Notes under the pieces: generated by a model
Seen by the model: the letters and a program-made list of their open reading frames with translations, nothing else
Database searches by the model: none
What the model was told of the DNA's origin: nothing
Part shown: piece by piece, positions 4,712 to 44,178 of the stretch
Numbering within the stretch: the stretch's first letter is position 1
How the letters are laid out: every line of letters starts with the position of its first letter
Source of the DNA: Obrimoposthia wandeli
Taxonomy: Eukaryota
Assembly: GCA_977020255.1 (NCBI GenBank)
Contig: CDROCS010003796.1
Coordinates: 186,001 to 250,000 of the forward strand
Reading direction: 5' to 3'
DNA length: 64,000 bases
Made by a program: the position numbers and the translations under genes

Positions 4712-5206
4712 AGTAGGTAGATGTGGCCCTTCTGGAACAAAGCCCCCGTCCTGAGGACAAGTTAAGGTCGCGATGAGGACAAAATGTAGACCCACGAGGG
4801 GTCTTTCTCCTGAAAGACACATATCAAGTAGGGTGATGTGCGTCTTTCAGGACAAAAACATTATGAGTCATACGCCCCCCTCCTAGGGGTAGGAGGACAA
4901 GTTAAGGTAATGATGAGATCCTGTCCTCATGAGGTCAAGATCATTTAAGATCATGGTGAGGTCAAAACGATGACTCGTCCTATGACTCATATTCTATTTT
5001 TAGTAACATATTTTAAAACTATATATATTTTTTATCTAAAGATTGTATTAACATGCGGTCTTCACCAAAAATACATTTCCTGTGTGTGTATATAACAAAG
5101 ACAGTCACGTACTACATTTATTCTTATACATGTATGCATGTGTGTGTGTGTAACAAAGACAGTCACATACTGCATCTACATTGCAAAAACTTGCAACTTT
5201 ATGTAA

Positions 5207-5523
5207 TTACAAACTCTTTGGAGATTTTAGTAAAAACTTTTACGTAGATATGTACTAGGATCCTTTTCAATTGCACTTACAACTTTATGTAATCCTACAA
5301 AAATATCAAGTATACCATTCCCTTTTTGTATACCTGCAATATAATCCATATTCTTTTTCAATTTTATAGCATTTGTATTAACTCCACCAAACTATCTACC
5401 TCAAAGATTTCCTATTATAAAAGGAATACCCCCCTTCCTGATTTTATTTTTACCCATAGTCTTTTTTACCTTAGTCATTTTTTTGAATTTTAATGATTTA
5501 GTAGGATTTATAGTCATTTTCAT
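5207..5523 (-). pseudogene. Homolog of the Lys-rich Polinton ORF at 35875-36234
   Basis: Reverse complement reads MKMTINPTKSLKFKK...GIQKGNGILDIF...EKDPS, collinear with the 35875 ORF; stops present. Confidence 0.8.
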
Positions 5524-5589
5524 AATAAATATTATTAAATAGTACTATTTTTTACATATAAAAATAATACAAATAAAGAAACAAAGTAC

Positions 5590-6920
5590 AAGTCGAGCTC
5601 ATCCAGGATCCGGAGATGTACCGTCTCTTCCACTCCGGGATTCGCGGAGGCATGACCTTCGTGAATGAACGCAAGATGGACACCATCAACGGTACTGAAC
5701 TTTTGTATATAAATGTGAATAACTTGTACGGGTGGGCAATGTCCTAGTTTTTACCTTGTGGTAACATTTCCTGGGTAACTGATCGGTTAGAGTTGGGGAA
5801 TATTATTTCCAATTTAAAAGCAGCAGATTTATCCTGTTGTCGCTTCACTCATTTATTGGATATAGATTTATCCATTCCCAATGAGATACATAATAAATTT
5901 GACGATCTTCCTCTTGCTCCAATTAAACAGTGTCCACCAGGGTGTAAGAATGAAACATTATTACTAACACATTACCCTAAGAATCATTATGTTATGCATT
6001 CTAAATTGCTACAAATGTACATTTGACTTGGTGCTAAGGTAGATTTTTTATACAGAGCAATACAGTTTGAACAAACTAATGTTTTTTCAAAATATATTGA
6101 GGATAATTCTCTCAAAAGAGCTGCGGCTACAACAGATTTCGAGCGAGATTATTACAAACTGAAGGTGAATTCTTTATTTGGAAATCTCATTTAGAATCTG
6201 ATAAAAATAATTAACCTTCGGATTTGTAATACTCCACAGAAGCTGGTTACCTATTGCATTAAACACCACTTTCGTAGGACAATCGAAATCGATACGGATA
6301 TAATTGCAGTTATACAGGATAAGAAAAAAATTGTTTTGGATCGTATTAGTTATATAGGCCAGACAGTATTAGATTTAAGCAAACTTCGTATGTATGAGCT
6401 ACAATATGAGCAGTTGGAGAAATATCAAGCTTAATTTAACTGTGACATTAGAATTATAGTGGGTGACACTGATAGTTTTTTCTTGAAGTGTAATAATGTA
6501 AATGTTCAAGAAACATTGTTACCTGCTATGATTAGACTATTGGTTACCTTGAAATTTCCAAATGCCCATCCGCTTTATACAACGCTTAATACAGTAATTA
6601 TTCACCTATAAGGGGTCCCACCTATAAGGGTGTCCGGTCACTGAAAATTTCACGCTTCACCTATAATAGTATCTTTCCAAGCTTTTAAATAATGCATCTA
6701 TAAGTGATTCGGTGTCGGTTTCTCTCAAAAACATGTTTTAATGAATACCCTTACAGGTGAATAATTACTGTACAGCGAGTGGTAAATTTAAAGATGAGAG
6801 CAAGGAATTTTTTAGCCATTTTTTAAGGGATTTTTCTACGTCCAAAATCATATAGCTTAGAGACTACAGAAGGTGAGTCTCCGAAGGTATTAGTCTCCGA
6901 AAGACAAGTATTAGACATTT
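5590..6920 (+). pseudogene. polB: pPolB C-terminal half, second copy
   Basis: ELIQDPEMYRLF, NVNNLYGW, YYKLKVNSLFG and VGDTDS; closely similar to 18621-19780. Confidence 0.92.
6592..6770. mobile_element. 179-bp MITE of the pogo element at 24635-27914, TA TSD
   Basis: TIRs CAGTAATTATTCACCTATAAGGG / CCCTTACAGGTGAATAATTACTG. Removing it restores polB TLNTASGKFKDES. Confidence 0.93.
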
Positions 6921-17399: not shown

Positions 17400-18250
17400 A
17401 GAATGTCTTTTTAAATATAGGTCAAAATTTTTGAAATTTGCGGAACTTTTTTTTTTAAGGTCAAGTTGAGGTCAACAAATCTAGGTTATGACCTAATGAG
17501 GTCATGACCCCCCATACTTAGGACAAAATGTCTTTGTTCTGAAAGACACACATACAGTAGGGGGATGTGTGTCTTTCAGGACAAAGACATTTTGAGCATA
17601 CCATCCCACCCTTGAGCACAGCTTAAGGTCACGATGAGGACATGACCTCATGAGGACAAGTTAAGGTCACGCTGGGGTCATGACCTCATGAGGACAAGTC
17701 AAGGTCACGCTGGGGTCATGACCTCATGAGAACAAGTCAAGGTCATGACGTCATGAGGACAATGTACTTTACGTTCACGGTGAGGTCAAAAAGATGACTC
17801 ATCAATGACTCATCGATGACTCATCCTATGACTCATCGATGACTCATATTCTATTTTAAGTAACAAACTTTAAAACTATATATATTTTTATCTAAAAGTG
17901 GTATTAACACGCGGTTTTCACAATAAGACATCTCGTGTGTGTGTGTGTGTTCAAGCTTATGTTATTTATTTAAATTAAATTATCTACTTATAAAATAAAG
18001 TATTATATAATTTGATAATTAAGTTTAAACGTTCCTATATCTATCTAACAAAGACAGTCACGTACTGCATCTATATTGCAAATACTTGCATCTTTATGTA
18101 ATCAATAGTAACAACTCACGTACTACATTTATTCTTATACATGTATATATGCGTGTGTGTCTAACAAAGACAGTCATCAATACCTACAAAGACAGTCACG
18201 TACTGCATCTATATTGCAAAAAAACTGCAACTTTATGTAAATACAAATAA
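17400..18250. repeat. Left TIR-like region of the Polinton, with 38-bp sub-repeats and a TGACTCA cluster
   Basis: Homologous to 4760-5200 and to the TIRs of 51479-56744. Confidence 0.8.
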
Positions 18251-19782
18251 TTTTAAAGACAAGTATTCTTTAACACATATATTCCTTAAAATCACAAAGG
18301 AGAATAAAAATATATACAAACACATATAAAAAGTTTATACAACATCGTCTGGGTATAAAAAGTGACCATAGGCAACTGATCGGTTTTTTTCCACCCACTT
18401 GCGTTTATCATCGCTACTGCTTAAGGCAATTTTACTTAACCTTACAGTAAAAAGTTGATGATTTAGCGAGCTTATACGTTGTTTTTGTACACGCTCGCTA
18501 ACGCCACTCATAGACGACTAAGTACCTGTTCCTGTGTGAGTTGTCGCATCACCTCGATCGCACTTGTCTGTCGGAGACTAATACCTTTGGCTCTCATCTG
18601 AGATTCACCTTCTGTAGTCTCTAGGCTATATGATTTTGGACGTAAAAAATCCCTTGCCTATAGCTAAATAATCCCTTGCTCTCATCTTTAAATTTTCCTA
18701 TCGCTGTATTAAGCGTTGTATAAAGCGGATGGGTTTTTGGAAATTTCAAGGTATCCAACAGTCCATCAGCAATCATAGCAGGTAACAGTGATTCTTGAAC
18801 ATTTACATTATTACACTTCAAGAAAAAGCTATCAGTGTAACCCGCTATAATTCTAATGTCACAGTTAAATTGAACTCGATATTTCTCCAACTGCTCATAT
18901 TGTAGCTCATACATACGAAGTTTGCTTAAATCTAATACTGCCTGGCCCATGTAAATAGGACGATCCAAAACAATATTTTCCTTATCCAGTAAAACTGCAA
19001 TAAGGTCCGTATCGATTTCGATTGTCCTACGAAAGTGGGCTTTACTGCAATAGGTAACCAGCTTCTGTGGAGTATTACAAATCCGGAGGTTAATTCTTTT
19101 CATCAGATTCTCAATGAGATTTCCAAATAAAGAATTCACCTTCAGTTTGTAATAATCCCGCTCGAAATCTGTTGTAGCCGCAGCTCTTTTGAGAGAATTA
19201 TCCTCAATATATTTTGAAAAAACATTAGTTTGTTCAAACTGTATTGCTCTGTATACAAAATCTACCTTAGCACCAAGTCTAACGTACATTTGTAGCAATA
19301 TAGAATGCACAACATAATGTTTCTTAGGGTAATGCGTTAATAACAATTTTTAAGTCTTACACCCTGGTGGACGCTGTTTAATTGGAGCAAGGAAAGATCG
19401 TCGAATTTATTATGAAGCTCATTGGGAATGGATAAATATATTTCCAATAAATGAGCGAAGCGACTACAGGATAAATCTGCTGATTTTAAGCGGGAAATAA
19501 TATTCCCCAACTCTAACTGATCAGTCACCCAGGAAAAGTAACTACAAGGTAAAAACTGGGACATAGCTCACCCGTACAAATTATTTACATCCATGTACAA
19601 AAGTTCTGTACCATTGATGGCGTCCACGCGGTGTTCATTGACAAAGGTCATACCCCGGCGAATCCCAGAGCGGAAAAGACGATACATTTCTGGATCCTGT
19701 ATTAGCTCGACTCGTACAGGGGGAGCAGAAGAAGAAGATTCCGAGCGAAGCAGGGATTTGAAAGCACTCGCGAAAGTCAGTC

Positions 19783-20019
19783 CTGGAAATAAAACATTTA
19801 TTAAAATCATTAATTTGTGAAAATCATTAATTTGTGAAAATCATTAATTTGTGAAAATCATTAATTTGTGAAAATCATTAATTTGTGAAAATCATTAATT
19901 TGTGAAAATAATTACTTTGTGAAAATTATTACTTTATGAAAATCATTACTTTATGAAAAGTTACTTAATAAAAATTACTTAATGAAAATTTACTTGGTGA
20001 AAATTAATTAAATACAAAC
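19783..20019 (-). other. 237-nt GT-AG intron in pPolB containing a 17-bp tandem repeat
   Basis: CCT G|GTTTGT...TTTCCAG|GA CTG; splicing gives FFSIPGLTFASAFKS in frame. Confidence 0.88.
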
Positions 20020-22501
20020 CAGGGATGGAGAAGAAATTGAGTGGCTCCAATCCATCGTCAGCAATGGCCTTGGTCCGGAATGCTGTAAACACATCTGCTA
20101 AAAGGTAGACGTCCATCTTCATATATACTAGCATATAGTCCCAGAGCGATGAGCAGCCGCTCTGAGTCCAGACCATCTTCGCCATTTCATATTGTGCTGG
20201 CTTGATCTTCTCATCCCACTTTGGCGGTAAGCTGGTGATTGCACGAAGAGCAGTCTCTGATACTACCATATCGTATAGGAAGATTCCCTTAACGCTCACC
20301 AGATGTTGCGGGAAGACCGAATATGTAAGAGGAGTCACATCCAGGTTTTCTACAAGTTTTTCAAGTCCGCTGTTCAAAAATTGCAAGGAATCTATAAAGC
20401 GTATACAGACTCCTCCAATATACACCATCATAGCCTGGAATTTTTTTGTTGATTGAGGTATAACAGAGACATTCCAGTCAGGAAACTTGCACAGTGCGTG
20501 TTTCAATATGTGGTGCATGTCATAACCCATAAGATTATGAAAAATGACGGGAAAAGATCGATTAATTCTCCTTGATAAGTTGCATTTCGTATGCGCTGCT
20601 CCCAGGTATTCGCCAGTCATGTGATCGTGATCTCGAACTTTGTTTGTGAGTTTCTTCTTACACAGATAACAGATTCTTGCTGCATTGAAACTCGATACAT
20701 GTTCCTGTGTGAGTTGTTGCATCACCTCGATCGCATGCTTCTTGTACCATGGGAGTACAACCTCTTTCGCCAAGTCCTCTAATTTCTGTAAAAAGGATAC
20801 CACACAAGATTCCCCAGTAAAAACCGAGTAATCATGTGTGTACCCTCTCGTGGCTGCAACGGGAGACATGAGCATACTGGCTGAGATTGGAAGCTGAATC
20901 TGATGATGGATTCCACGTGGCGGCAGCACAGCCTCAAAGTCCACGTAAACAGCAAAAGGCGGAGAAATCGTTTTTGAAAAGTCCTTAAACTTAATATGCT
21001 TCTCTGTATGCATTGAATAAAGCGTTGTATGATCTAAATTCATCCTACAGAGTGGAACGTGTTTGGCGTAACTTATTGGACTCCGGAATCCATGAAGACA
21101 CTTATGGCACCAAGTACACCGAATGCAATTAGATACACCTTTGTTCCTATAATTAAGCAGCCTATTGAGTTTAGGAATACTGACATTATGAAAATTATCA
21201 TTATTTTCTAAAAGGAGAAGATTGATTGCTTTAGCGTCCGAGTTTGTGGCTCTGTATATGACATCCACATATGGATTTTTGAAGATATCCCTATATGTTT
21301 GCTCATCAGAGAACCTATTGAATGTAAATACGTTGATTGAGAGAGATGGATTCTTTCTCTCAAATCGCGGTATGTTACATAGACGCATTGGCATCTCATT
21401 CTCATCAAAAACTAATTGACTCAAAAGGGCATCATATTGATTAACCCTATGAGGATTAGAGCGAAATAGATCGCGGAAAAGTATAGATAGGATACTGTAA
21501 AGGAAGCAAAACGTGTTAGAGTTCTGCACATTGATAACGCAATGTGAGAGTGCTAACTCGGATGGAGTAGGTATATAACTACTCCCTAGGAGATAGTTCA
21601 TTGTTGCTGTTTTAGTCACAACAAACGAAATTTCACGAAAGCGGTTCACTACCCAATTACTGCTACTTTGCGAATAATTCTCAATCTTCTTGTTGATCCC
21701 ATCTATTCCCGCATCTATAAACCCCTCATCTATGGGGAGCCCTCTATTGGAAAAATTCCAAGCACGTGTTTCTCCAATATTGGAAAATTCAACACGCACC
21801 CCGAATTGAACCTTGCAAGTCGCAAACTTGCTGACTGTGTCCCTTAAGCTAGTCAAAAGTGATACAGGAACTTGTAAATCGATGACATTGTCATAAGAAA
21901 CATCTAATGACAATGTCTCAATCGTGCCCCGAAGACTAGTCTTACGCTTAACAGCATTAACCCTGGACAACTTCGCAACAGAGCTACTTGAAGTAGGCAT
22001 AACACTTCTCTTGCGGGTAGATACTGGTAACGGCGCGGGGATCATACCAACTGGAGGAGGCATAACCTGAAGCATAGTAGAGGGTACAGCAGATGGTGGC
22101 GCAGCAATTGACGCAGCAACTGGAACAGCAACTGGGGTAGCAATTGGAGCAGTAACTGGGGACGAAGCAGTAACTGGGAACGAAGCAGTAACTGGTGCAG
22201 CAATTGGGACAGCAACTGGCGAAGCAACTGGAGCAGCAACCCGATCTTGAGAAATGGTAACAGGAGAAGCAGCATGAGCTCTATCCTGGAAGATGGCCTT
22301 CTTGCCACGTTGCTGGAAATGGCAAAGATGGACACGATGACGCGCCACAAACTCCAACCAATCAATCTCCTCCGTGGAGAGACATACTGGGCATACGTAG
22401 AATTGTTGTCCATTGAACTTTTGTCCAAAGTAGCTCTTCATTTTTCAGTCACATTCCTTGTGACTCTCCTCAAAACATAATTGTTTATTCATGTTGCAAT
22501 T

Positions 22502-22544
22502 CTACAAAGAAAAATAATGAATATAGAAATAACAAGAAACTTAC
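22502..22544 (-). other. 43-nt GT-AG intron immediately after the pPolB start codon
   Basis: ATG|GTAAGT...TTTGTAG|AAT; the spliced frame joins the 820-aa ORF with one TGA at 22445-22447. Confidence 0.75.
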
Positions 22545-22862
22545 CATTTTCAATTTCATTTATAATAGAGAGTTATTTGTTGATTGATGCTTGCTTATAT
22601 ACTATTTTCGAGCTAGTATTAAGCCAATCAGATTCATTCATTATTTAAACTAATCAGATTCATTTATTATTTAAAACAAATCAGAATAGAAAATAGTTTA
22701 CTGATTAATGTGAGTAGTTGATTTTTCATTAATATTTAAATAATCCAAACTAGCTGCAAAGCATTTCTTGTATGCACAATGCTCTCCATGTTTAATATAT
22801 GGACAATTGATATTTGATGGATTTAATTGTTTTAATGTTTTCGAGTAATTTATCACTCTAAC

Positions 22863-23132
22863 TTAAGGAAAATATTTATTGAATGTTTTTATTTTAGCTC
22901 CATTATACTCATCCAAAACAAAGAAAATTGATTTGGATACATCACAACAATTTTTTATTTCCTCAGTTATTTCTTGTATCTTGAAATAACTATTACCATC
23001 AACTAGTTTTAGTCGATGGTAATGCTTAATGAGATATATATTTATTTTTTTTGATTTTCTATTCATCATGACCCATATAGGTTGCATTTTAAAAACATAA
23101 TGTTTAGGATAGAAGATTGCATCCACATCCAT
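22863..23132 (-). CDS. Polinton orphan ORF, 89 aa
   Basis: Open ORF between PRO and polB, co-oriented with both; no motif recognised. Confidence 0.55.
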   Translation of the reverse strand: MDVDAIFYPKHYVFKMQPIWVMMNRKSKKINIYLIKHYHRLKLVDGNSYFKIQEITEEIKNCCDVSKSIFFVLDEYNGAKIKTFNKYFP

Positions 23133-23243
23133 TAAAAATAGTTCCTTTATTACAAATTCAGTATTATTATCAATAAAAGCTTCAAAATCAATAAAATAAA
23201 CAGATATTTTTATAGCAATAATTTTATTTTATATTGTTTATAT

Positions 23244-23585
23244 CTATTGTTTATGCTTTAACCAAAGCAGACAGAGTTGTCCACATGACTGTGTTAAAAC
23301 ATTTTGATAATGTTTCTTACTAAAATGTACTTTCTTTCCAGATTCAAGTACTGTAGATACTAATTTAGAGGGGTAATATATCCCAAAGGGGTCAAAAACA
23401 AAGATTTCAATTTCTTTAACATGTATTGCAATCCAATGTTCACCACGCAAATTAGATGAATGTGTACTGATTACATATCCACCTAAACGAGTCAAAGGGG
23501 GGATATGATCAAGACTGTAGACTCCATTGAAACGCGAACCGAGTAGTTTTCTTCCGCTTTTTGTTATCTCGTCCGAACTAGATTA
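23244..23585 (-). pseudogene. pro: Adenain-like cysteine protease (Polinton PRO); start codon unclear
   Basis: GEHW, FDPFG and Q...SCGQLC catalytic motifs; the frame extends upstream (FNGVYSLDHIP). Confidence 0.92.
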
Positions 23586-23650
23586 TATATTAATTAATTA
23601 ATTAAAACTGACTTACTTCATTTATATCTTCTTTATTGTTTTCATTCTGT

Positions 23651-24634
23651 TTATACTAGCACTGTTCCTCCCTTGATAATTTGAACCTCAGAATCGAATA
23701 CTCCATAGATTATAATATTAGTAGGATGTTTAAGTGCTTTTGAAAACTTGATTTCTACTTTCAAATTTCCCTGTTTAGGGATTTGAGCTTGATTAATATC
23801 TAAATCAGGAGAGAGAACAAATGTGAACAGTGTATAATTGTCCTTGAAATCAGTCATTGAAATTCCAATATTAGCATCCTTATCCAAATGACCAAGATTT
23901 CTAATTAAAGATTGCACATAAGAAAACACATAATCATTATTTTCAAAGTCATTTGTATAAGATTCTTGATAATAAATATTTCTTGCAAGTTTAATTGAAC
24001 TCACATTCATATGTCCAAATTGAGAAACCTCATTTTTAGACTCACCTCCATAGGTAGAAGTGTTTTGCAAAGCAATTAAAACAAAGTTTGGAAGTTGCAT
24101 ATCACTGCATATAAATCTGATCCTTGTAATAAGATAGTGCTCCCGTAGGGTTAGCGTGAGAAACAAGATTAGTTTTTCTAATAGGATAACATGCATTTTG
24201 CTTCTCCAACCCTATTCGATGTGCAACGAGTACAGATGGTTCCACCCTTTACTCTTCTAACCAACAGTTTTGCTTCGGTAATCTCAATTGCTGCTTTAAT
24301 AGTATCGGCGCAAACAACACTAAAACCTACTGGATTTCTCTTCATTCGAATATGTGCACTTACACCGGGTAAAAGATACTTTGGTTGCTTAAAGAAATCC
24401 AAATGGAGACTGCCACAAAGTGACAATACTTTAGACTTTGCAATCGAAGCTGTTCTTCTTTTTTCATCATCATCAAACCCAATTGCATCAAGATTAATCA
24501 ATTTCGTATCATTACCATAATTTAGAAATGTTTCAATCATTGCTTTATGGGTGTAACTAGTATTATTTCCCTCAACTTTCACATTATTGAGACTGAGAAT
24601 CACATCCTTGAAAAGAGTATGCAACATGTAATTA
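23651..24634 (-). pseudogene. MCP: Major capsid protein (PY), C-terminal part, frameshifted
   Basis: YMLHTLFKDV, LHLDFFKQPKYLLPGV, YTLFTFVLSPD and GNLKVEIKFSKAL. Confidence 0.92.
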
Positions 24635-24766
24635 CAGTAATTATTCACCTATAAGGGTGTCCAGTCACCGAAAATTTCACGCTTCACCTAACAAAGGGTG
24701 CCCGGTCACCGGATTTAAGTCCTTGATTTTTTTTAATCACAGAGAAAATTCAACTCAATGATCAAT

Positions 24767-26592
24767 TTATTCATCATTTCCCCCCTCATTTTCACTCTCA
24801 CTTTCAATTTCACTTTCTTCTTCATCAGAATCATCATTTTCATAATCGCTATCGCTATCACTTTGGTCTTCATCGTCACTTTCTCCGATTTGATAGTCTT
24901 CGAGCGCTTGGACTTTGATCAACGCATCCTCCGAACCATCAGAAGCATTGAGCATACCACATTCAACGAATGCTTTCGTGATCTGCGCTAGACCATTCTC
25001 ATTGAGAAATTCTTTCCAAGATTCGCTGAGCCAAGTTGCATACAGCAATCGTCTTTCCCTAGCGTTGATTTCGCCGTTGACCCAACCATCGTGGTTGTCA
25101 TCGAAGTGCTTGTTATATTTCTTCTTCATTCGATCTTTTATTGCTTTCCCCAATCCTCGATCTGTCACAGCACAGAGATCTGTGCAATCAGGAGGGGTAT
25201 AAATTAACAAAGTATTTGAATCGCGGATCATTTTTTTAAATTCCGGAGAACATTGAGATCCAAGATTGTCCAGACCAAGGAGCTTTTCATTGCTGCCACG
25301 AGTTTGTTTCTCGAAATTGTGAGCGTATTCCAATGAGGTTGCGGTATCAAACCAGGCTTTCGGTTGATAATAAATTTCGACATCTTTTGGCATATTCCTT
25401 TGCTCAGCATGGATACGTTTGTCATATGGGATACTCGGGTTGATAGTTCCGTCTTTAGATTTATGCGGTTTGAGTCGAAAACATATCCCAGGTTTGATAC
25501 GTTGAGGTAAATCAGCACAAAAAGTTAACTGTAGCGTTGCTTGTCTTCGACTTTGATCAACTTTTGCTTGCTTTATTTGTACTACTCTTTTTCCTTTCTT
25601 TTCATAAGTATCTTTGAGCGGTCCTCCGAATTCCAAAGGAATTTGATCGACGTGATATCTGTTGTTTGGGGAAAAACGTCCGTATTTTTCGTCTTGGCTC
25701 GGAGGAGGTTGACAAAATTGTTTCACAGTTCTGTGAAATTTTTGCACTTCTTTCATTCTTTCATGTGCAGTTTTCGGCTTTCCATTTGTTCTCATTCGTT
25801 TAGTGACTTGAAAACGTTTGCACCACCGCTGAACCCAACCTCGTGAAGCTTTGAAATTTTTTGCTTTCTCAATTTGTTCAGCATTCATCAATTCTTTGTA
25901 TTCAGAAACAAGTTTCTTCATCTTTGATTGGAGCCATTGTGATGAAACTTTCTTCGCATCAGCGCGCCTTTGACCGAAGATGTCGTAAAGTTGTGATTCT
26001 TGTTTAGGAAACAATCCACGTTTATACTTTTCAAGACGTTCACCACTGACTTTTGCTTGACGAACAGTTGGATTAGAATCTGTAGCGTCTTTGGCAATCA
26101 ACACTCGATTTTTTTTGGTTTCCCAGTTAGAAATTGTTCTAAAACTGACTGTTGGATGCTCAGCCTTGAATTTTTCTTCGAAACAAATTGGATGATCACG
26201 CCTCGTGGCTTCAAAAGAGAGTACAAGCGAAAATTTCTTTGAGTTGGAGAATCTGATTCTTGTTTTGCATATTTGTTGTTTTGTTGGTGATCTTTTCTTT
26301 TTGCTATTGTTGGTCTTCTTTTTCTTCGGTTTGGGCGAAGAACTGATTCTGACTTCATGTTCAGACACGTTGGAATTTGAACTTGCGTTTTCGAACTTGT
26401 CAAGGTTGAGTTTGAGTTGTTTCCTCTTGTCTTTTCGTTGTTTGTGTCTGAATTTATTGTGTTGAGCCAAAGCACCCAAATTTGGAAAGATAGAAGTGCA
26501 AGTTGAGCAAGATACGTTCTTTCTGCTTCCTTTTCTGCTTGTTGAGCTCGTTGAGTTGCAGCTCCTTCTCTCATAGCGTCAAAGAACGACAT
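24767..26592 (-). CDS. pogo transposase, CENP-B HTH + DD35D, acidic tail; one probable frameshift near 26490
   Basis: FKASRGWVQRWCKRF, HVDQIP, GLDN...PPDCTDLCAVTD; 570 aa uninterrupted from 26479. Confidence 0.9.
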
Positions 26593-27112
26593 TCTTGTGG
26601 TGAAAAGAAAGATTCTAAAGTAACCAGATTTACATAAATGTTCTATATAATACTAAAATTACCACCAACATTATATAATTTCGGTGGGTTATTAAATCCG
26701 GAGTTATAGAATGAAGTTTTAACTGGAGTAGCGCCCCGTTGGATTATCAAAAAATCTATAATGATATTGAATATATAATATCTTCGAATCTGTAAAAGGT
26801 TAAAAAGGGCTATAAACTTTTCATATTATATAAGTTATTAAATATCCATATAGGTATCTGAAAAATTTCGAGAAATTTTCTGTTTTTTATTTTTCGAGGT
26901 ATTAAATCATAAATACTTTAAATTAAATTAAATTTTGTAATATTATTTTTGCCTATTTACTATTTTAAATATAATTTTTGTATTAGAGTTAGTTTTTCTA
27001 GTTTAATCATAGGATATAATTTTCATTTTAGGAGCAGTTTAACTTTAAAGTGCTATTCTACTTTTAGGAGGAGTAGTGCAGTAGTTTTCGGAGATTCACA
27101 CACACTGGCCAA

Positions 27113-27742
27113 ATGACTGAAAAAATGAATATATTTAGATCCACGACGCAAACAACTCCTTCAATAACGTATGAAACGATGTTCAAAGAAATTTCTTGGC
27201 CTAGAGGAGGCACATATGTAATGCGAAACAACAAATTGTAGGACAAAAAGTATCAAAATAAAAAGAAACACTCAAAACAAATGAAATCAACAAGTACAAA
27301 CAAAAAGTATCAAAGTTTAAAGAAAAAATCAAAACAAATGAAATCAACAAATACAGACAAAAAGTATCAAAGTTCAAAGCAACAATCAAAACAAATGAAA
27401 TCAACAAATACAAACTAAAAGTATCAAAGTTCAAAGCAACAATCAAAACAAATGAAATCAACAAATACAGACAAAAAGTATCAAAGTTCAAAGCAACGAT
27501 CAAAACAAATGAAATCAACAAATACAGACAAAAAGTATCAAAGTTCAAAGCAACAATCAGAACAAATGAAATCAACAAATACAGACAAAAAGTATCAAAG
27601 TTCAAAGCAAGAACCTTCTTAGAACGCAGAACAACGTTTGGCTAAAACACTTGCAAACCTGATCAAGAATAAATGTTTTTTAGCCGCACAAGAAATCGAG
27701 AAGGAAATTATCGAGTTGAACACCACATATAAATGTATCTGA
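27113..27742 (+). pseudogene. Second (cargo) ORF of the pogo element with a 19-aa repeat
   Basis: One 210-codon frame, MTEKMNIFR...(DKKYQSSKQQSKQMKSTNT)n...AQEIEKEIIELN, with three isolated stops. Confidence 0.5.
27244..27610. repeat. 57-bp tandem repeat, ~6.5 copies
   Basis: Periodicity is directly visible. Confidence 0.95.
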
Positions 27743-27914
27743 ACATATGTAATTAATGTAAGTAAACATCTTTTCAGGATTTTAAGTTCTTGTTTGAATA
27801 TTCGACTGTACTCTTACAGGTGAGACTTTTAAATAATGCATCTATAAGTGATTCGGTGTCGGTCTCTCTCAAAAACATGTTTTAATGAATACCCTTACAA
27901 GTGAATAATTACTG

Positions 27915-28167
27915 TAGCTGATTTGATATCAAAATCATCATCCAAATCACCTCCTCCTTCCTTTGTAACTTTCAATTTAACGAGAAATAAACTATCATTC
28001 AAATCAAGATATTGAGTATTGGATCCATTTATATTGAATTCTAAATCCGGAGAAGATGTCCCGTTAACCGTATTTGTCGGAAACATTTCTTCAAAACTAG
28101 CACTATCAACCACAACCTGAGGTATAGGTTTATCAAATATACACAATTCAGTTTTAGCACAACTCAT
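27915..28167 (-). pseudogene. MCP: Major capsid protein (PY), N-terminal part
   Basis: MSCAKTELCIFDKPIPQ...LEFNING...YLDLNDS is a typical Polinton MCP N-terminus. Confidence 0.92.
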
Positions 28168-28217
28168 TACTTTAAAATTGTTCCACCTAGTTTCAAACGT
28201 TTGTTTATACCCGATGC

Positions 28218-28529
28218 TTATGATGTTTTCTTACGTTTATAACCACTTCCCTTTTGAGTTTTCTTTTTCAAAAATTCAGCTAGACTTGGTGAAATTTCAT
28301 TCACATGATCCAAGGCTGCATCCTTTAGTATGGGAAGAAATTTCTCATCACCAGACAAGTATTTTGATCCAACATTAGCAATAAAATTCCCGAGTCGCTT
28401 GAGTAGTGGGAAAGCAAAGCGACCAAAAACCTTCAGCCATCCTGATCCATACTGTTTTCCCACAAAATAAGGCAAATCACATCCTTGCATCGGTTTACTA
28501 TATGCATCGATTATACTTGAATCAATCAT
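28218..28529 (-). CDS. Small Polinton virion protein (PW-like), 103 aa
   Basis: QYGSGWLKVFGRFAFPLLK amphipathic motif and C-terminal QKGSG. Confidence 0.75.
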   Translation of the reverse strand: MIDSSIIDAYSKPMQGCDLPYFVGKQYGSGWLKVFGRFAFPLLKRLGNFIANVGSKYLSGDEKFLPILKDAALDHVNEISPSLAEFLKKKTQKGSGYKRKKTS

Positions 28530-29548
28530 AATTTACGAAAATGAACCGTTAAACTTGTTTCAGCTCCGTAAGCAAATGTAATTAATCTTCCAGAATCATT
28601 ACGTATATTAACTTCAATGTTGTTTATAGAAGAAGTACTCACTGGAATATACATTGGATTTTCAATTGGAATATGTATAACATCACCATACTTGTGTTTT
28701 TCCTGTTGAACCCAAATTGCTTTTATTAAGGGAAGTTCCCTTCCTCCTACGAATATTGGTTCAGTAATACTCGTGTAGATATAAATCTGATTATATGCAT
28801 TAGTCATTTTAGGAATAATCTTTGCTTTGAAAACCTCATGTTTATTTTCAAATTCATTTTCATCAAAACCGATAATTGAGGCTAATGATTTATCCATGAC
28901 AACTTTATCAATATTTGATTTCAATTAGAAATGAATCAATTTATCACCTAGTTTAAAGTTTTCAAATACATTTGGTAACACTGTTTTAAAATGTTTACAC
29001 ATTCTTTCACTATCGGGAAAAAGAAAATCATTGGGAACTGAATATATTTTTCTCTCGCGTTTAGTGAATCTGCTTTTTATCTTGAATGTAATTATCGGAT
29101 ACTTGAGATGATTATCCATAATTCCCGAAAACACATGCTTTCCTTTATCAGGGTTAGTTGGAAATCCATATTGTTGTGCAACAATTTCATCACTAAAAAC
29201 TATTTCAAAATTATGCCCTTTTCCTATATTTTGGATTCGATTCTCTTTATTCAAAAAGATTGTGAAATCATCGCCAGCCTTAATACGAGCCAAATCCATT
29301 TGACCCTTATCAAATAGTAAAGTCACATCAGTTACTTTATCAACTTCTTGTTGAGTAATCTATTCAATCTCAGCTTCACTTTGAATAGATAGAGGAGAGT
29401 AATTGAAAGAAAATTCCGTAAGAGCAGCTTCCCAAGCACCAGGTAAATTGATTGAGCTTTGATAATCAATACTAAAAATATTAGCAGTATTATTCGGCTG
29501 AGTTAATGGCGAACCAATGCTTGGTAATACAACATACATTGAGTTCAT
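28526..29548 (-). pseudogene. mCP: Minor capsid/penton (PX) with two in-frame stops
   Basis: MYVVLPS...NT...F...L.G.WEAAL, IYIYTSITEPIFVGG...PL and PMYIPV...IEVNIRNDSG. Confidence 0.92.
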
Positions 29549-30556
29549 TCTATTTGAGAAGCTAATATCCAACTAGGTTCAGTATATCCATGCCACTTAA
29601 CATGATATTGTTTATACTTTCCCCTACCTTTTGTCTTTAAGATTTCTTGAATTCTATATACATTTGGTTTCTCAGGCAAGACTTGTAATTCCTCATGATA
29701 AAATTTACCCATAATTACATTATTGCTCTCATCCTCAATGAAATACATTACTAGCACATGTTTATTATCAATTTTAGTTATACGAAATACTTCATCGCTC
29801 CAATTCTCTTTGAAATTCTTTATAAAATTAGTAGTACTAATTTGAGAAATACGTACATAATCACCAACTTTATACTTGGGTTTCTTTACAACTTGACTTT
29901 GGTTACGGCGTTGCCAAATTTCCATAGCATTCTCATATGTAACATCAACAGGTCTCTTTCGGTTTAATGATGAGTGTTCACTATGATTGTATGCATGTAT
30001 TATTTGAAGTAAAACAGTGACCCAGGGCTTATTTCCCTGCTTTGTGAAATACCTTTTCAATCGTCTCTCAATGTTCGATTAAAACGTTCAACTAAAGCAG
30101 CGTTATATTGGGAAAATACTGAGTAATGATTAATATTATGTTTTTCAATAGTGCACCAACATGTTTATTATAAAACTCCTTTCTATTGTCTGTTTGGAAA
30201 TTTCTTGGTTTTATTTCTTTAATCAAAAGCTTCATTGCAGCTAAAACATCGATACCAGACTTAGACTTTAATGGAATAGCTCGCGCGAATCTGCTAAAGA
30301 CATCAACACAAGTTAAAATATATCGATGTCCACCGTTAATACTCGCATACGGAATCATTTCCATCAAATATGCTTGCCATAAATCATTCGGGCCGCTCGT
30401 TGGGAACCGACATCTCATTGGTTTGTTTAAGCTGTAAGCTAATTGATTTCTCAACCACGCCTGAGTTTCCTTTTTCCCCTTCTTTGACTCTTTTGCTAAT
30501 TTTGAAACCCATGTGTAACCAACGGGTCGACTTGGGTCGAACCATATTTTCTCCAT
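29545..30556 (-). pseudogene. int: Retroviral-like integrase with C-terminal chromo-like domain; frameshifted, first catalytic Asp changed to Tyr
   Basis: WQAYL (normally WQADL), VDVFSRFA, TDNRKEF, ERFNRT, YNHSEHS and VKWHGY. Confidence 0.94.
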
Positions 30557-30653
30557 TACAACAAGACGATTTGATTTTTATATTGAATTTAGGAATAGAT
30601 GGAAGTGATCCCATATATAAATTCATATTTTTGATTCTAATTTATGTTTATAA

Positions 30654-31064
30654 TCATCGGTTTATTAGTCTACTAGCAAGTGCACCAACTATTGAGCTAA
30701 TAATTGGTACGAGAAATCCTAAAAATCCACCACTTTGCTTATAAAGCAACTTACGTTTACCGATCCGTGTTTTGGCGTGAAACAAAGCAAGTAGAGGTTT
30801 CTTATGCCGATTGATGTTAGCCTTGACCATTATTTTACCAGAAACTATTTTCTGTATCATATTAAGTAAATCATCAATTACAAAAGTAGGGAATGATTTA
30901 AGAATAGCTGGGCGGCGAATAGCAGGTGCACACATGAGAGAATTGAAATAGGCAATACTCCTAGATTTCTTAACAACAGTTCTTTTCTTATTTGATTTTT
31001 GAGCAACCATTTTTTTTATCAATTTTTTAACTTCAGGTTTAACAGTTTCCTTTTTAAAATTCAT
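30654..31064 (-). CDS. Basic virion protein with QSGG-FL motif and C-terminal amphipathic helix, 136 aa
   Basis: KQSGGFLGFLVPIISSIVG; sits between ATPase and INT as in Polintons. Confidence 0.75.
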   Translation of the reverse strand: MNFKKETVKPEVKKLIKKMVAQKSNKKRTVVKKSRSIAYFNSLMCAPAIRRPAILKSFPTFVIDDLLNMIQKIVSGKIMVKANINRHKKPLLALFHAKTRIGKRKLLYKQSGGFLGFLVPIISSIVGALASRLINR

Positions 31065-31712
31065 CTTCGAGAAACTGGTTTCTTTGTTTGTTTATAGACG
31101 ATTATTCCTGATGGATTGAATATATCAGTTCTAACTCTCAAGTCATCGGGACAATCTTGAGTAAAATCAATAAAAATGTATCCATGAGGAATAGTAGTTG
31201 CATCTTGAAATGAATCAATTAGGAACTTTCTATTATTTGGATAAACTTGTCTTGAAACAAAATGAACAACCGTATGATCACGTGGATTCTTGAAGAGAAC
31301 AAGACAATGTACATTTAAATTATGAGTTATATGGTTCCCTCACTTGATGAAATAGATTTTGTGTGATGAAAACAACAGTTACTTCACGATGTCGTGCTAT
31401 TTTAGTGAATAAATTATTGAAATCACTCTCTTTATTTGCTTCTTGATATAAATCATCAATAACAATAACATCATGTCGTTGTAATCGCTCAGACCAATTA
31501 TCATCGAATTCTTTAATGACTTTTATATTTTTGATTTTCTTAAACTCTTTACTGGTTAACCCGGCTTCTCCATCTCCTCCCTGATGCCAGTATATTTTAT
31601 TAAACTTAAAAGTAAAGTATTTATTATTTTGCAGTAATTTACATACAAAATGTGTTTTCCCACTACCACTAGAACCTACAATCTGAAAAACTGAATTATT
31701 TTTTAAGTTCAT
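31061..31712 (-). pseudogene. FtsK/A32-like packaging ATPase, one frameshift near 31335
   Basis: Walker A GSSGSGKT, Walker B VIDD, RH...ITQNLF, LFKNPRD and IFIDF. Confidence 0.93.
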
Positions 31713-31754
31713 ATTAAAATATTAGATTATCGGGATAATGTTTATAAGACAAAA

Positions 31755-32042
31755 CTATTTAAAATATTTTATTAAAATAAATCCACTAAGAAACAATAAA
31801 AAACTCTTATCCCAGAAAAAGCTCCTTTTCTCTTCTTTCTTTGCACGTTCTTCTTTCTTCTGATTGTATCCCAGAATGAGAAGATTGACGGCCTTGTCGT
31901 GCACCATTCTTCTTACGTGTTCCTCCAGGGGTAGATTTGAAACATCAATGAGTTTCATGACATCTTCTTCTATGACATTCTTCGAGATGAAGCTCTTCAC
32001 CGCCTTGTCAACATCTTGCTTGAAATGATTTGGAGTAGACAT
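31755..32042 (-). CDS. 95-aa orphan with a basic stretch and C-terminal hydrophobic anchor
   Basis: Intact ORF ending FFWDKSFLLFLSGFILIKYFK, with TATA and CCAAT upstream. Confidence 0.65.
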   Translation of the reverse strand: MSTPNHFKQDVDKAVKSFISKNVIEEDVMKLIDVSNLPLEEHVRRMVHDKAVNLLILGYNQKKEERAKKEEKRSFFWDKSFLLFLSGFILIKYFK

Positions 32043-32207
32043 AATGAAGAAGCAGTAAAAAGTAATCTGATTTTATACTATACATCTGAAATCTGATTGG
32101 TTAATAAAAAACACTGACTAATAAAGACACTAACTAATAAAGACACTGACTAATAAATACACTGATTAATAAATACACTGATTAATAAAGATAAAGACGA
32201 ATAAAAT

Positions 32208-32960
32208 TTACACATGATAACGATTAAAAATACGTATTTGATGAAGCCTAGCTTCATTAGGAGCAGCAATAGTCCGTTTAGTTTTAACAAGATTGGAAGC
32301 AGCTGTAACACCCATCGAATGAGATAAAAATGCAATAACAATGCAAGCAGCATGTAAACTACCATAATGACTACATACTAAAATCTTACCACCATTTTCG
32401 ATATTTTCTTTAATTATATTATTAGTCTGTTTATAATATATCATTATTGTTTCTTCTAACATTGAGTTTACAAAGACAGAAGTATATTTTAATTTCTTAT
32501 AAGATATCTTATCCAGTATAGATGTATTGATTACATGAGTGAAATTGGAGTTCAAAAGTGTAGTTTCATCAAACCCATCTCTATAATTACCAATATATAA
32601 TTGATTTACTAAAATCTCACTCATTTTTGTTTTGTTTAACTTTTCTACATTAAGTTGAGTAAATCTAGCACTAAACAAACTATCAAAAAGATGGGTCATG
32701 TGGTTCATTTCCATACTGGAAGCATGAGCTATTATGGGTTCCATAAAAGCCAAAGCATTTAAAAAATCTAATCGTCTCTTATCTTCTTCTTCAATAATTG
32801 GATCTATAATAACTTCTTCTATCATCACTTCATCAATAGTTTCTTCTCTTCTCATAACTGTTGTTGTTGCTGGTGATGATGTTGCTGATGGTGTTGCTGG
32901 CGATGATGTTGTTGGCGATAATGTTGCTGCTACTGCCAGTGCTGATGTGATTTTTTCCAT
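32208..32960 (-). CDS. Dual-specificity phosphatase fold, predicted pseudophosphatase, 250 aa
   Basis: MSEILVNQLYIGN, FTHVIN, GGKILV, CIVIAFL and VKTKR...PN. The HCxxGxxR signature reads CSHYGSLH. Confidence 0.85.
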   Translation of the reverse strand: MEKITSALAVAATLSPTTSSPATPSATSSPATTTVMRREETIDEVMIEEVIIDPIIEEEDKRRLDFLNALAFMEPIIAHASSMEMNHMTHLFDSLFSARFTQLNVEKLNKTKMSEILVNQLYIGNYRDGFDETTLLNSNFTHVINTSILDKISYKKLKYTSVFVNSMLEETIMIYYKQTNNIIKENIENGGKILVCSHYGSLHAACIVIAFLSHSMGVTAASNLVKTKRTIAAPNEARLHQIRIFNRYHV

Positions 32961-33293
32961 TTTATTAATTCAGAGTCAATTTACTCTTATATACTAAACG
33001 AGGTTTGATTTCATTGAAGCATCAGTTTCATCATAGCCGCGTGATTTGATTGGAGTATTATTCAACCTTTCCAATGTACTTCCAATGTACTTGTAAATGT
33101 AGTTGATGACGTAACCTAAAGAGTTAAATAAACTACAAATAAATATTACTCATGATTATTTTTCCTAATTAAAACATTTAGAATAACTGAGCCATGGTCT
33201 TTAAATGCATCCTGAAACTCTTTACATTCAATAATTTCATCCATTTTATGATAAAGCAAATCAAATATTGTTTATAACCCAGAAACATCTATT

Positions 33294-33968
33294 TTAGACC
33301 ACATTACAACTATTTGCAGCTATTTGCAAGTAATGACATGTGATGTCTTTGTCTCTAAGATAAATATATTTTAGTAACATTACGACTATTTGGTTCAGGA
33401 AATAAATAACACAAGTGTGAAGATCTATATTAAATAAAATACATTCAATCAGATACTCATAGTTTAAAGATTTAACATTAAGTATCATAATCTTCCCGCT
33501 AGCAAACATGTTCACGCATAGTGGATTGTATTTGACATATCCCAGGAAGATTTCTGGCTCGTAAACAGCTTCCGATCCCATACTTTTGCTCATCTTGTTC
33601 AGGTTTATTGATGTTTCTAGATTGCTGCTGAGACTGATTGATTGGATTCTTTCCATTTTTATATCAAAAGGAAGACTGCTTTCATCCAGCACCGTTTTAC
33701 AACCCATTATTCTGCATGTACCTAATTTATAATTATATATAAATGTAAAAATAAATTACCAGATTTGAAAATGATAATAGTGTAACCTTCACACTTGAGT
33801 CGATACTGATGAGGCTTCGAAGTCCGAAATGGTAAATGTTGAATGTTACTTACAACCATGCCATTGTAATTAATATTCACTAATTTGATATTGTGAAGTA
33901 GTATTTCTGATTATTATAAACTGATTTCTTCTATTTATACTATTTGAACATCTATTTTTAGATTGCAT
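33294..33968 (-). CDS. TBP (TATA-binding protein)-like gene with a 38-nt intron; 5' end uncertain or frameshifted
   Basis: Two TBP-like repeats: TIIIFKSG|TCRIMGCK and SNLETSINL...YEPEIF...VNMFASGKIMI. Confidence 0.8.
33722..33759 (-). other. 38-nt GT-AG intron in the TBP-like gene
   Basis: TCT G|GTAATT...AATTAG|GT ACA; 38 is not a multiple of 3, and splicing restores IFKSGTCRIMG. Confidence 0.85.
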
Positions 33969-33976
33969 GTCTTTGT

Positions 33977-34961
33977 TTAATTGCCTATGCTATGAAATTT
34001 AATATTTCTTACTCGTCTAATGATAATTGTCTTGCAATATGGACATGAAATAAAACGTTCTGAACATTTAATACACGTGTTTAAGTGTCCACATGGTAAA
34101 AATGCCACGGAAATCGCATCGCTCATGCAAACAACACATTTGGGATTTGGCAAGAGGTACTTGAGATAATTTATACGATGTTTAGGTCAGATTTTATTTC
34201 TAAAAATCTTAAATCCGTTATAAACTCATATATAGAATCATATTTGTTACCGAATGTTTTAAATATATTAACTAAAACGGCTTTGATTCTATCATGACTA
34301 TAATCACGTTTCAGCAAAACTATTTAACGAGTTTCCATCTGAGCATCAATTTCATCATTACTAATATGATATTCTACAATACATCAGTTCTTGATTCCCA
34401 TACTAGATGCTTTACAATCTCGAGTATGTAAGATTCTTTCAGGCATAGTATCAATAAACTCAAGTCGGGGTACTGCTTTCTGACAGAAACAACATCGATA
34501 AGAATCATTCCAAATATATACATGTGGAAAAATCGATAATGTAGGTATTTCAATATCATTAGAATAATTATTGCATACAATAACTACTTTATCCATTGGA
34601 GTTGAATCAAAATCAATTTGCTTGGTGCTGGAATCAATTATTGGTACGTTTGAAACATTCATTTCAAAACAAACGGGCATCTTGGGAAAAATAGCTGATG
34701 CCGCTTCATTGGTTTCAGATAGTACTCCCATTCCGATATTGCTCCCAGACAGTAAATACACTTTACATTATCTTTCTAATCATCGTGCTTGTAAAATCCT
34801 GCTTTTGCTAAAGCTGTCTTATCCGCTAAACCAGTAAACTTTGCTTGTAATGTATCTAATCTATGTCGCTCATATATCATATCTTCCTTTCTTCTTGAAA
34901 TCTTGTCTAAAACGTCGTCATCTAATGATGAGTTCTCCATTTTCTGAAACATAATATGCAA
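33977..34961 (-). pseudogene. iap: Inhibitor of apoptosis: BIR-BIR-UBA-RING
   Basis: BIR: LAKAGFY...DNVKCIYC...WE...H...PRCPFV. Second BIR-like: CCFC...H...C. UBA-like: RIKAVL...GNKYDSIYEFITDL. RING: CVVC...LPCGH..C..C...CPYC. Four stops and two frameshifts. Confidence 0.9.
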
Positions 34962-35409
34962 TAAATTTAGTAGTCATAACAACATTGAATAATGAAATTT
35001 TCTAGCTTATATAGTAAGTGAAAACTATTTTTAGACTACATTCTTGGATTTTACAAGAATAGTCATGTGATGTCTTTGTCTTAAGAATAAAGCAGTATAA
35101 ACAATATTTTGATAATGATTTTATTGAAAATGAATAATCAAAATAATGAAAATAATCAAAGTAGAGCTAGTACATATATAGGTTCTGGTAGTCATTTATA
35201 TTCTAATATGAATTATAATAGAAATAATCAGAGAGAAAATATTAATCCATCAAGTTAAACAATAACAAGTCCTACGCGTATAACCGAAGAACATAAGCCC
35301 TTTAAGGATATGACTAATACTAAACGATTTTCATAAACAAGAATGTTAACCAATTAGAATTGAGCTTTAGAGGATAAACAATTGAATATTTCAATTTATA
35401 ATTGTCAAT

Positions 35410-35775
35410 ATGAAATTTGAAAAGCTATATCAACATATGCATACATATTATGGATATGAGATACACTTTTTGAAGAAAACTCATAACTATATATTTATTT
35501 TTCCCGTCAACATCGAGCCGCTTAAATTTGATTTTGAAATATCAAATTTGACTTCTGTGGATAAAGAAAGAATCAGTATTCTCTTGACTCAATTCGGAAT
35601 CAACTATGCGCTTCAGGAAAACAAATTCGTAATCAAAGGATCAACTGTCACTTTCAAGCATGAGAATGGAACAATATACGAAGGACCTCCTCATAAATTA
35701 GAATGGGTTCTCTCAATCAGAATTCAGGATGCAAGTTCGGGCCCAGTGGATTGGAAACTCCGATATGGAAAATAA
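35410..35775 (+). CDS. Polinton orphan ORF, 121 aa
   Basis: Intact ORF in AT-rich context; no motif recognised. Confidence 0.65.
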   Translation: MKFEKLYQHMHTYYGYEIHFLKKTHNYIFIFPVNIEPLKFDFEISNLTSVDKERISILLTQFGINYALQENKFVIKGSTVTFKHENGTIYEGPPHKLEWVLSIRIQDASSGPVDWKLRYGK

Positions 35776-35874
35776 TTGATGCTGTTAGAGTTGACTAATA
35801 AATGTTTGTGTCTTTATTTGTATTATTTTATTTTATATATAAACAATAGTGATACTTTAATAATAATATTTATT

Positions 35875-36234
35875 ATGAAAATGACTAAAAAACCTACTAA
35901 ATCATTAAAGTCGAAAAAGACTAAGGTTAAAAAGACTATGAGAAAAAAGAAAATCATTGAGGGTTTGGGTATTCATATGATGGAAGGTAATCTTTTAGGT
36001 AGATGGTTTGGTGGAGTTGATAAAAATGCTATAAAGCACAAAAATAATTTGGATTATATTAGAGGTATACAAAATGGGAATGGATTGCAAAAAGGAAATG
36101 GTATACAAAAAGGGGATGGTATGCTTGATATTTTTGTAAAATTAGATAAAGTTGTAAAAGCATTTGAAAAAGATCCTAGTGCCTATCTTGGTAAAAAACT
36201 AAACTTTTTAGCAAAACCTCCAAAGAGTTTGTAA
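35875..36234 (+). CDS. Lys-rich protein with repeated QxGxG motifs (core-protein-like), 119 aa
   Basis: TATA at ~35836; KKTKVKK N-terminus; QNGNG-LQKGNG-IQKGDG; homolog at 5207-5523. Confidence 0.75.
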   Translation: MKMTKKPTKSLKSKKTKVKKTMRKKKIIEGLGIHMMEGNLLGRWFGGVDKNAIKHKNNLDYIRGIQNGNGLQKGNGIQKGDGMLDIFVKLDKVVKAFEKDPSAYLGKKLNFLAKPPKSL

Positions 36235-36829
36235 TTACATAAAGTTGCAATATAGATGCAGTTGTTGGGGTTTCTATACGAGACTTGTATAGATCCTCTT
36301 GTGTGCGGAGGGCCCTAACGTGAGTTCTAATAGAAGCAGGTCTTAAAGTTGGTCGTGGCCTACTTAGTGCTATGGTTGCCTGTCTCAATACTTATCTGAA
36401 GGTGTTTGTTTTTGATGTTTCTTAATCTGAAGGGTTTAAAACAATGCTTTCTAATGTAGGAAATCGTTTATTGTTAACACACTAGATTAAACACAACAAT
36501 ACGTTTACGTACGTATTCTCTAAAAAGTTACAGTAAAAATTCCTAAGACTTCTGTAAGTCTCTACACAAGTGGGGATGAACCACGTATCGATTTTATGTT
36601 AAGGTTGGTTAAGTTCTTAGAGTCTTTCTTCTAAATCGTGGATAAGCTCAAGTTATAGATTTTATGGAGCTGGTTGCTCTAAAAGTATGGGTTGATTTTA
36701 GATAGGGTAACCCCTCTAAAATGTGAATATACTTTCTTGTCGAATTATCGGCGTAATCCAACTTCACAGCTAATCAAACTTATAATATACTTTAATGCAG
36801 CTTTTAGTGATTCAGTAATTCAAAAACTT

Positions 36830-40344: not shown

Positions 40345-40404
40345 CCTACATTTTTGACTTGTCTTCAGGGGGGCTTTGTTCCAGAAGTGCCACATCTACC
40401 TACT
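40345..40404 (-). mobile_element. Polinton terminus (…CCAGAAGTGCCACATCTACCTACT)
   Basis: Reverse complement of the terminus at 4712 and 51479; no partner end or TSD found. Confidence 0.85.
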
Positions 40405-44136: not shown

Positions 44137-44178
44137 CTAAAAAACTTTGTTTTAACAATTTATAAATGTATTTCTAAC

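Follow-up and report, generated by a model that had tools for sequence, protein, structure and literature searches.

Probable spliceosomal introns in the polymerase and TBP-like genes of a Polinton family from Obrimoposthia wandeli

Whether the genes of a capsid-encoding Polinton can carry introns as heritable parts of the element, or whether such interruptions are damage acquired after insertion, is the question raised by a locus in the genome of Obrimoposthia wandeli. The locus lies in a 64,000-nucleotide (nt) stretch, referred to here as the window (GCA_977020255.1, contig CDROCS010003796.1, positions 186,001 to 250,000 of the forward strand); the Polinton family of the window copy is designated family A. 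Its polymerase gene, pPolB, is interrupted twice and its TBP-like gene once by GT-AG segments. The window copy is considered to be a decayed Polinton, and it is highly probable that these segments are introns spliced by the host and inherited as parts of an active element; they are likely not damage that followed insertion. A lineage dependent on the host spliceosome, as proposed in an earlier sequence-only reading of this locus, is supported because both exons flanking the internal pPolB intron are under selection and because intron positions are common to divergent families.

The three introns and selection on the split polymerase

All three segments are present on the minus strand where the sequence-only reading had placed them (Table 1); each is AT-rich and bounded by GT and AG, the GC content being 17% in the internal pPolB intron (intron 2) and 8% in the TBP-like intron, and the start-codon intron of pPolB (intron 1) stands immediately 3' of an ATG. 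Several equivalent boundary slides exist for each intron, and just one slide yields GT..AG at each. Features of U2-type introns are present, namely a GT donor, an AG acceptor and a T-rich 3' end. Intron 1 and the TBP-like intron are host-sized; the yardsticks are intron 1 of the interrupted host gene (which we take to be BBS2, from its motifs and from the sequence-only reading), measured at the length previously given for it, and one host TBP intron of 47 nt. The proposed match to the size of host introns thus stands for these two and fails for intron 2, which is not short.

Excision yields the homologous protein in exact register, and the intron interiors are free to change. The claim that each segment restores a conserved frame is borne out at the internal pPolB and TBP-like sites, which homologs read through; at the ATG no long frame is restored, exon 2 having its own Met at codon 4. 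Naive open reading frame (ORF) calling had also been expected to score the sites as frameshifts, which is incorrect for intron 2: its length here is a multiple of 3, and the reading is broken by an in-frame stop 13 codons in. Rfam gave no match over 17400-36400, and no ribozyme core of a group I or group II self-splicing intron was found there; introns of 38-43 nt are far under ribozyme size. Four read runs (type unrecorded, one sample) cover the entire element, introns included; none of the 15 joints shown, out of 1,045, skips any of the three introns, which is uninformative on splicing. From the features of the sequence, splicing of all three introns is likely.

Intact copies without the segments were sought and none was found: the interruption is kept at 56/56 other loci for intron 2, at 30/30 for intron 1 and at 30/30 for the TBP-like intron, the two 30-locus sets including the window's own copy and the 56-locus set consisting of other copies. 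A survey of the homologous polB site shows that 115 of 120 pPolB homologs read through the position of intron 2 with no indel, and most of the others end before or just past it. In family A, intron 2 was measurable in 56 of 57 other loci, where it spans 107-612 nt with 44 different lengths, divided among the mod-3 classes as 21/18/17; read-through is broken in all 56, and GT..AG is present in 51. In 26 of these 56 copies, namely full copy C1443 (L124) and 25 others, intron 2 holds sequence derived from the terminal inverted repeat (TIR) of the element; its inner portion is often found there in repeats, with 96% identity over 138 nt in one copy.

Selection on the two halves of pPolB was measured from variants common to at least three copies, which mostly reflect replicating lineages. 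The ratio of non-synonymous to synonymous polymorphism (pN/pS) of these variants is 0.16 downstream of intron 2 (46 synonymous, 26 non-synonymous and no stops; 54/58 loci) and 0.15 upstream (96 synonymous, 51 non-synonymous and no stops; 57/58 loci). Private variants give 1.08 downstream with 16 stops and 0.71 upstream with 29 stops. About half of the loci in this test were chosen by protein likeness; the subset picked by DNA alone gives 0.17 downstream and 0.15 upstream. The polymerase is therefore split and under selection while its copies spread, and because the split gene is under selection on both sides of intron 2, full pPolB is probably made, and hence intron 2 spliced.

These ratios bear directly on a rival explanation, in which the segments are insertions that inactivated a master copy, intronless helpers then amplified it passively, and the GT-AG ends arose by chance. 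Every copy examined in detail has a stop or frameshift, and families without intron 2 could supply the polymerase in trans; however, among shared variants amino-acid changes are depleted about six-fold and stops are absent both before and after intron 2, unlike in a dead passenger gene, and the TBP-like and start-codon sites are reused in divergent families with unrelated inserts. Passive multiplication is considered very improbable.

Introns in other families and in metagenome relatives

Intron 2 is specific to family A, unlike the other two introns. It was not found in the 120 proteins, nor in the 65 of 84 metagenome or viral loci in which the site is covered; among these loci 27 failed a narrow read-through pattern, of which 25 read through by eye and two are broken without a GT. 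It is also absent from families C, D and E of the same genome, where 16 of 30 longest ORFs of family E reached the site, and from the covered parts of four distant pPolB loci in viral contigs. As families C, D and E lack the intron, it was either gained on the family-A branch or lost on the others; a gain, followed by uptake of repeat expansions and of pieces of the element's own TIR, is the likely history. A frame change near residue 615 of family C, common to two copies, was checked and is not an intron.

The absence of intron 2 from three sister families also bears on the idea that the introns are real and act as a regulatory switch: in some tissues, intron 1 or 2 would be retained and a short upstream reading or a protein without polymerase would result, complete pPolB being made only where splicing is efficient. 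The P-element, with its germline-spliced intron, offers a parallel. With intron 2 retained the protein would lack every polymerase motif, with intron 1 retained the reading would end after 20 codons, and intron 2 has a weaker donor (GTTTGT) and often TIR-derived repeats inside. Against these points stand its absence from the sister families and the wide variation of intron positions across relatives, which agrees better with neutral gain than with a conserved switch; a regulatory role, while possible, is unsupported, and a switch is judged unlikely.

Intron 1 is 43 nt long in 29 of 30 loci and is bounded by GT..AG in 25 of 30. If the ATG is read on into the intron, a stop follows after 20 codons; the codon-4 Met of exon 2 sits after the first Cys of the C-C-H-C motif, and the intronless homologs P0005, P0022 and L198 share the M-x(1-2)-C beginning of the spliced form. 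In family D, whose pPolB is about 43% identical to that of family A, 15 of 25 loci have an intron of 47-48 nt at the corresponding position; the family carries two further introns around an 87-nt exon, each with GT..AG in 19 of 21 (21/25 loci matched). A GT..AG segment is found just 5' of the pPolB ORF in 24 of 30 family-E loci. In one family-C locus (L146, on C1894) a stretch ending in LRGG lies just upstream of the pPolB C-C-H-C motif; we take it to recall a ubiquitin-like leader or a protease site.

Within family A the TBP-like intron has GT..AG in 30/30 loci and a length of 38 nt in 29. The same Gly codon is interrupted in the same phase in all nine copies from five other groups, with GT..AG intact in six and a 1.4-kb insertion within the intron of one. 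Exon 2 is 44-54% identical to family A in four groups and 44-64% identical among five groups, and the intron bodies of different groups are no more alike than shuffles. Of 150 TBP-like profile hits, 67 read through the site and 15 begin at a Met just past it; the latter could have the same intron in other lineages or could lie at contig ends. The TBP-like gene of the metagenome Polinton L204 has no intron and reads through the site. A search for TBP-like genes in viral contigs gave 84 pattern matches, none of which was confirmed.

The TBP-like gene is accessory rather than core and has cellular relatives, and intron-bearing cargo genes of Mavericks have been published (bioRxiv 10.1101/2022.07.12.499685, in part); the introns could thus have arrived with captured host genes, and not as gains in viral ones. 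However, pPolB is a core viral gene, for which capture is already refuted, and the TBP-like family is large and widespread, is intronless in L204 and often reads through in the profile hits. The host TBP genes L186, L187, L189 and L190 have no intron at the site, and the TBP-like intron is therefore not inherited from them. Host capture is accordingly given very little credence. Two intron-bearing host TBP genes lie head to head on C238, and L189 (C60) and L190 (C1092) are divergent host TBP paralogs with intronless cores. The top hits for TBP come mostly from spiralian animals, following three tandem hits from plants.

Introns thus reach other families and metagenome relatives, which extends beyond the earlier account. 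Of 80 metagenome loci fetched, 18 close ones were scanned for introns, which gave 21 candidate donors in the sense and one in the antisense direction, with 15 distinct acceptors in eight of the 18. Six loci yielded 19 introns on manual reading (40-53 nt, 81-96% AT), and the 5' end of L209 accounts for five of these. Nine metagenome relatives carry pPolB introns, and two intron sites are common to L201, L205 and L206; L198, L200, L203 and L269 have long unbroken pPolB ORFs. In a tree of 62 rows, a single 34-row clade (SH-aLRT 100) unites all families from this genome with the nine intron-bearing loci, and intron-free rows are mixed in among them. This mixture points to repeated gain or loss of introns, between which the tree cannot tell.

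Repeated gains within one clade need a source, and insertion by a host introner-type transposon would supply one; introners inside maverick-polinton-like elements of dinoflagellates have been published (PMC11957031, in part). In that work the insertions were mostly judged to postdate integration, whereas the present introns are common to whole families. In a comparison confined to six introns, these are unlike one another beyond composition; the closest pair are two start-codon introns from the same site, which 10 of 300 shuffles matched in score. An introner origin is quite unlikely.

The element, its genes and its surroundings

The sequence-only reading had located a Polinton at 18335..33968. 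A Polinton is indeed there, and its true span is longer, from about 17450 to at least 36250, between exons of BBS2 (Table 1). Family A is a capsid-encoding Polinton: two of ten fetched copies (C1443 and C2100) are about 16.5 kb long with TIRs of about 0.85 kb that start AGTAGGTAG. A 6-bp target site duplication is present in all four copies with both ends inspected, of the ten fetched, and is not recoverable for the window copy, which keeps the left TIR alone, and that truncated. Further decay of this copy is seen in a premature stop at 22445-22447 in pPolB exon 2, frameshifts in pPolB and a pogo-like insertion in the capsid gene.

Table 1. Features of the window copy of the family-A Polinton and its host gene
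Feature	Coordinates	Strand	Remarks
Left TIR	17451..18240	.	Outer ~50 nt missing; matches TIR of full copy C1443
pPolB exon 3	18335..19782	-	Frameshifted here; PF03175 positions 199-386 in unbroken natural copy, in pieces in the window
pPolB intron 2	19783..20019	-	237 nt here; 17-nt tandem repeat inside; phase 1 in Gly of FFSIPG
pPolB exon 2	20020..22501	-	C-C-H-C motif, variable linker, exonuclease part; PF03175 positions 5-160
pPolB intron 1	22502..22544	-	43 nt; GTAAGT..T-rich..TGTAG; phase 0
pPolB exon 1	22545..22547	-	Start codon only
Predicted TATA-like box TATATAAG	22594..22601	-	~47 nt upstream of pPolB ATG
Small ORF without Pfam family and adenain-like protease	22866..23582	-	Peptidase_C5 weak, E 0.005, below cut-off
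Major capsid protein gene (double jelly roll)	23654..28230	-	Split here by pogo-like insertion
Pogo/Tc5-like DDE transposon	24635..27914	-	Pfam DDE_1, HTH_Tnp_Tc5; short TIRs between TA dinucleotides
Core block: small ORF, putative minor capsid, integrase, Adeno_PX-like ORF, A32-type ATPase	28221..31721	-	
Dual-specificity phosphatase gene	32211..32969	-	PF00782, E 1.9e-11
TBP-like exon 2 (one TBP repeat)	33297..33721	-	PF00352, E 2.9e-07
TBP-like intron	33722..33759	-	38 nt; phase 1 in Gly of IFKSG
TBP-like exon 1 (M..NINY..IIFKS)	33760..33904	-	5' end approximate
IAP-like gene	34387..35100	-	BIR and RING in unbroken copy; ends approximate
Host BBS2 intron 1	44137..44178	-	42 nt; element further down same gene, same strand

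pPolB is identified by PF03175 above cut-off in both large exons and by 245 homologs; exon 3 carries every polymerase motif (YxDVNNLY, KxxxNSxFG and GDTDS). Repeated CCAAT-like words precede the TATA-like box TATATAAG, and this region is a predicted Pol II promoter. The capsid gene is elsewhere one intronless ORF of 408 amino acids; in a low-confidence model (pLDDT 50) all listed PDB matches are double-jelly-roll capsids (best E 3e-11), and PF21738 is found in 30% of the members of the nearest Atlas cluster. The ORF is thus classed, on the modeled fold, as a double-jelly-roll capsid. The segment 24635-27914 is not part of the Polinton; it is a separate transposon inside the capsid gene, absent from the fetched Polinton copies and with a summed depth about 100-fold lower. 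A 57-nt tandem repeat array that is open in both directions occupies 27204-27641 within it.

No introns were seen in the core block (28221..31721), and capsid, ATPase and integrase are each a single ORF in at least one copy, whereas pPolB is split twice. The retroviral-like integrase matches PF00665 rve with E 3e-09 in the window and 4e-14 in a copy, and the packaging ATPase matches Pox_A32 above cut-off; a 348-amino-acid ORF without a Pfam match is labeled as putative minor capsid by its position only. The TBP-like protein of a natural copy matches TBPs in the PDB with E 2.5e-15; a conserved M..NINY motif marks the start of its gene some 15 codons before the visible Met, and the window copy lacks this start codon. 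With its phosphatase, TBP-like and BIR-RING genes, the accessory block at 32211-35100 may serve to manipulate transcription and cell death in the host; further Polinton families of the genome also have TBP-like and IAP-like genes.

Family A is very large, with 2,560-3,425 first-look candidates for DNA queries and 35,132 for one protein query (these are not copy numbers). Several Polinton families, at 40-70% protein identity and often nested, appear to be present at very high copy number, with thousands of first-look candidates per DNA query, and Polintons may make up a large share of the 1.35-Gb genome. A second, internally deleted Polinton with a TIR end, the first small ORF, a capsid piece and the 3' part of pPolB lies at 4712-6909 on the plus strand of the window. 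At 51479-56744 is a 5.3-kb element with long inverted repeats, the ends of which match the first 52 nt of the Polinton TIR; it is likely a non-autonomous Polinton derivative. A Polinton terminus in right-end orientation at 40359-40404 may mark the distal end of the window element, set apart from it by insertions, or may belong to another element.

Interpretation and comparison with known systems

In the mechanism proposed for these introns, host Pol II would transcribe the genes in the nucleus from TATA promoters, and ordinary U2-type splicing would be required to make pPolB. Splicing of intron 1 would put the start Met before the first Cys of the C-C-H-C motif; splicing of intron 2 would join the exonuclease half to the half with all polymerase motifs, so that replication of the element would depend on host splicing. 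Several families probably split when the TBP-like and start-codon introns were already present, and repeated gain and loss of short introns is likely across the wider clade. We lean toward the broader view that the whole polintovirus branch is a spliceosome-dependent nuclear lineage, still capsid-encoding, with ongoing gain and loss of pPolB introns that can number five or more per 5' end.

Several points weigh against these readings. They are based on DNA sequence, and no transcript was seen. The in-frame Met at codon 4 of exon 2 means that intron 1 may not be essential, and 10 of 25 family-D loci miss the start-intron pattern, at least one of them having different upstream sequence. Family-A copies are only 2-5% apart, and their kept GT..AG is therefore weak evidence for the two short introns. 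Among the TBP-like copies of other families, three of nine have lost a splice site and one intron has shrunk to 20 nt; decay would explain these losses. The antisense control of the metagenome scan is lenient, antisense frames being seldom open, and the loci come from few datasets; the tree is quick and without bootstrap, and some of its rows are known as proteins only.

The finding matters for how Polintons are counted: surveys seek intact elements by unbroken ORFs, by which intron-bearing lineages would be scored as fossils or missed. Dependence on splicing implies host nuclear transcription, and would part the element from virophage-like relatives that use the cytoplasmic factory of a giant virus. 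Intron gain is rarely caught with both states present; here sister families with and without the same intron occur in one genome in large numbers, and the source of a new intron is therefore directly testable. If the interpretation is true, the very many datable copies, together with intron-free sister families, would naturally document the states before and after intron gain, and could serve as a model for the origin of adenovirus-style splicing from Polinton ancestors.

The literature covered here describes no spliceosomal intron in a Polinton core gene; Pritham 2007, Repbase entries or supplements, which fall outside that coverage along with Kapitonov and Jurka 2006, could hold such cases. 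That Polinton genes are normally simple ORFs, as had been stated for this locus, agrees with the parts seen of two surveys that call the core genes intronless: no introns are described in intact vertebrate Mavericks, in agreement with Kapitonov and Jurka 2006, and modelled introns are counted as decay (PMC8097293), and nematode Mavericks have intronless core genes with intron-bearing cargo genes, wasp and krma (bioRxiv 10.1101/2022.07.12.499685). Group I introns are described in Polinton-like viruses (PMC12220804), and a TBP-like gene is labeled in a figure legend with splicing unmentioned in the part seen (PMC8502044).

Against this background, and within the same parts of these sources, the family-A element resembles vertebrate and nematode Polinton/Mavericks in its TIRs, 6-bp duplication, pPolB, integrase, A32 ATPase, protease and double-jelly-roll capsid, and differs from those with core genes called intronless in that its pPolB is split and under selection while split. 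Like those of the nematode cargo genes, its introns travel inside a Maverick; that cargo is described as taken up from the host, whereas here the polymerase of the virus itself is interrupted, together with a TBP-like gene whose family mostly lacks introns elsewhere. Dinoflagellate introners are likewise intron-type inserts inside Polinton-like elements (PMC11957031), but belong to repeated transposon families, while those described here are short, AT-rich and unrelated to one another, and have become fixed in Polinton families replicating in an animal genome. The chlorovirus PBCV-1 gene a185R, a viral family-B polymerase gene, has an efficiently spliced spliceosomal intron (PMC3946568); PBCV-1 is a giant algal virus with one intron, and the present element is an integrating Polinton with many variable sites. 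The protein-primed polymerase of adenovirus E2B is made from RNA spliced in the nucleus (PMC9499273), as pPolB of family A would be, and adenoviruses are placed among Polinton relatives (PMC6431247). Adenoviruses use alternative splicing of a shared transcription unit, whereas the introns of family A are short and constitutive-looking.

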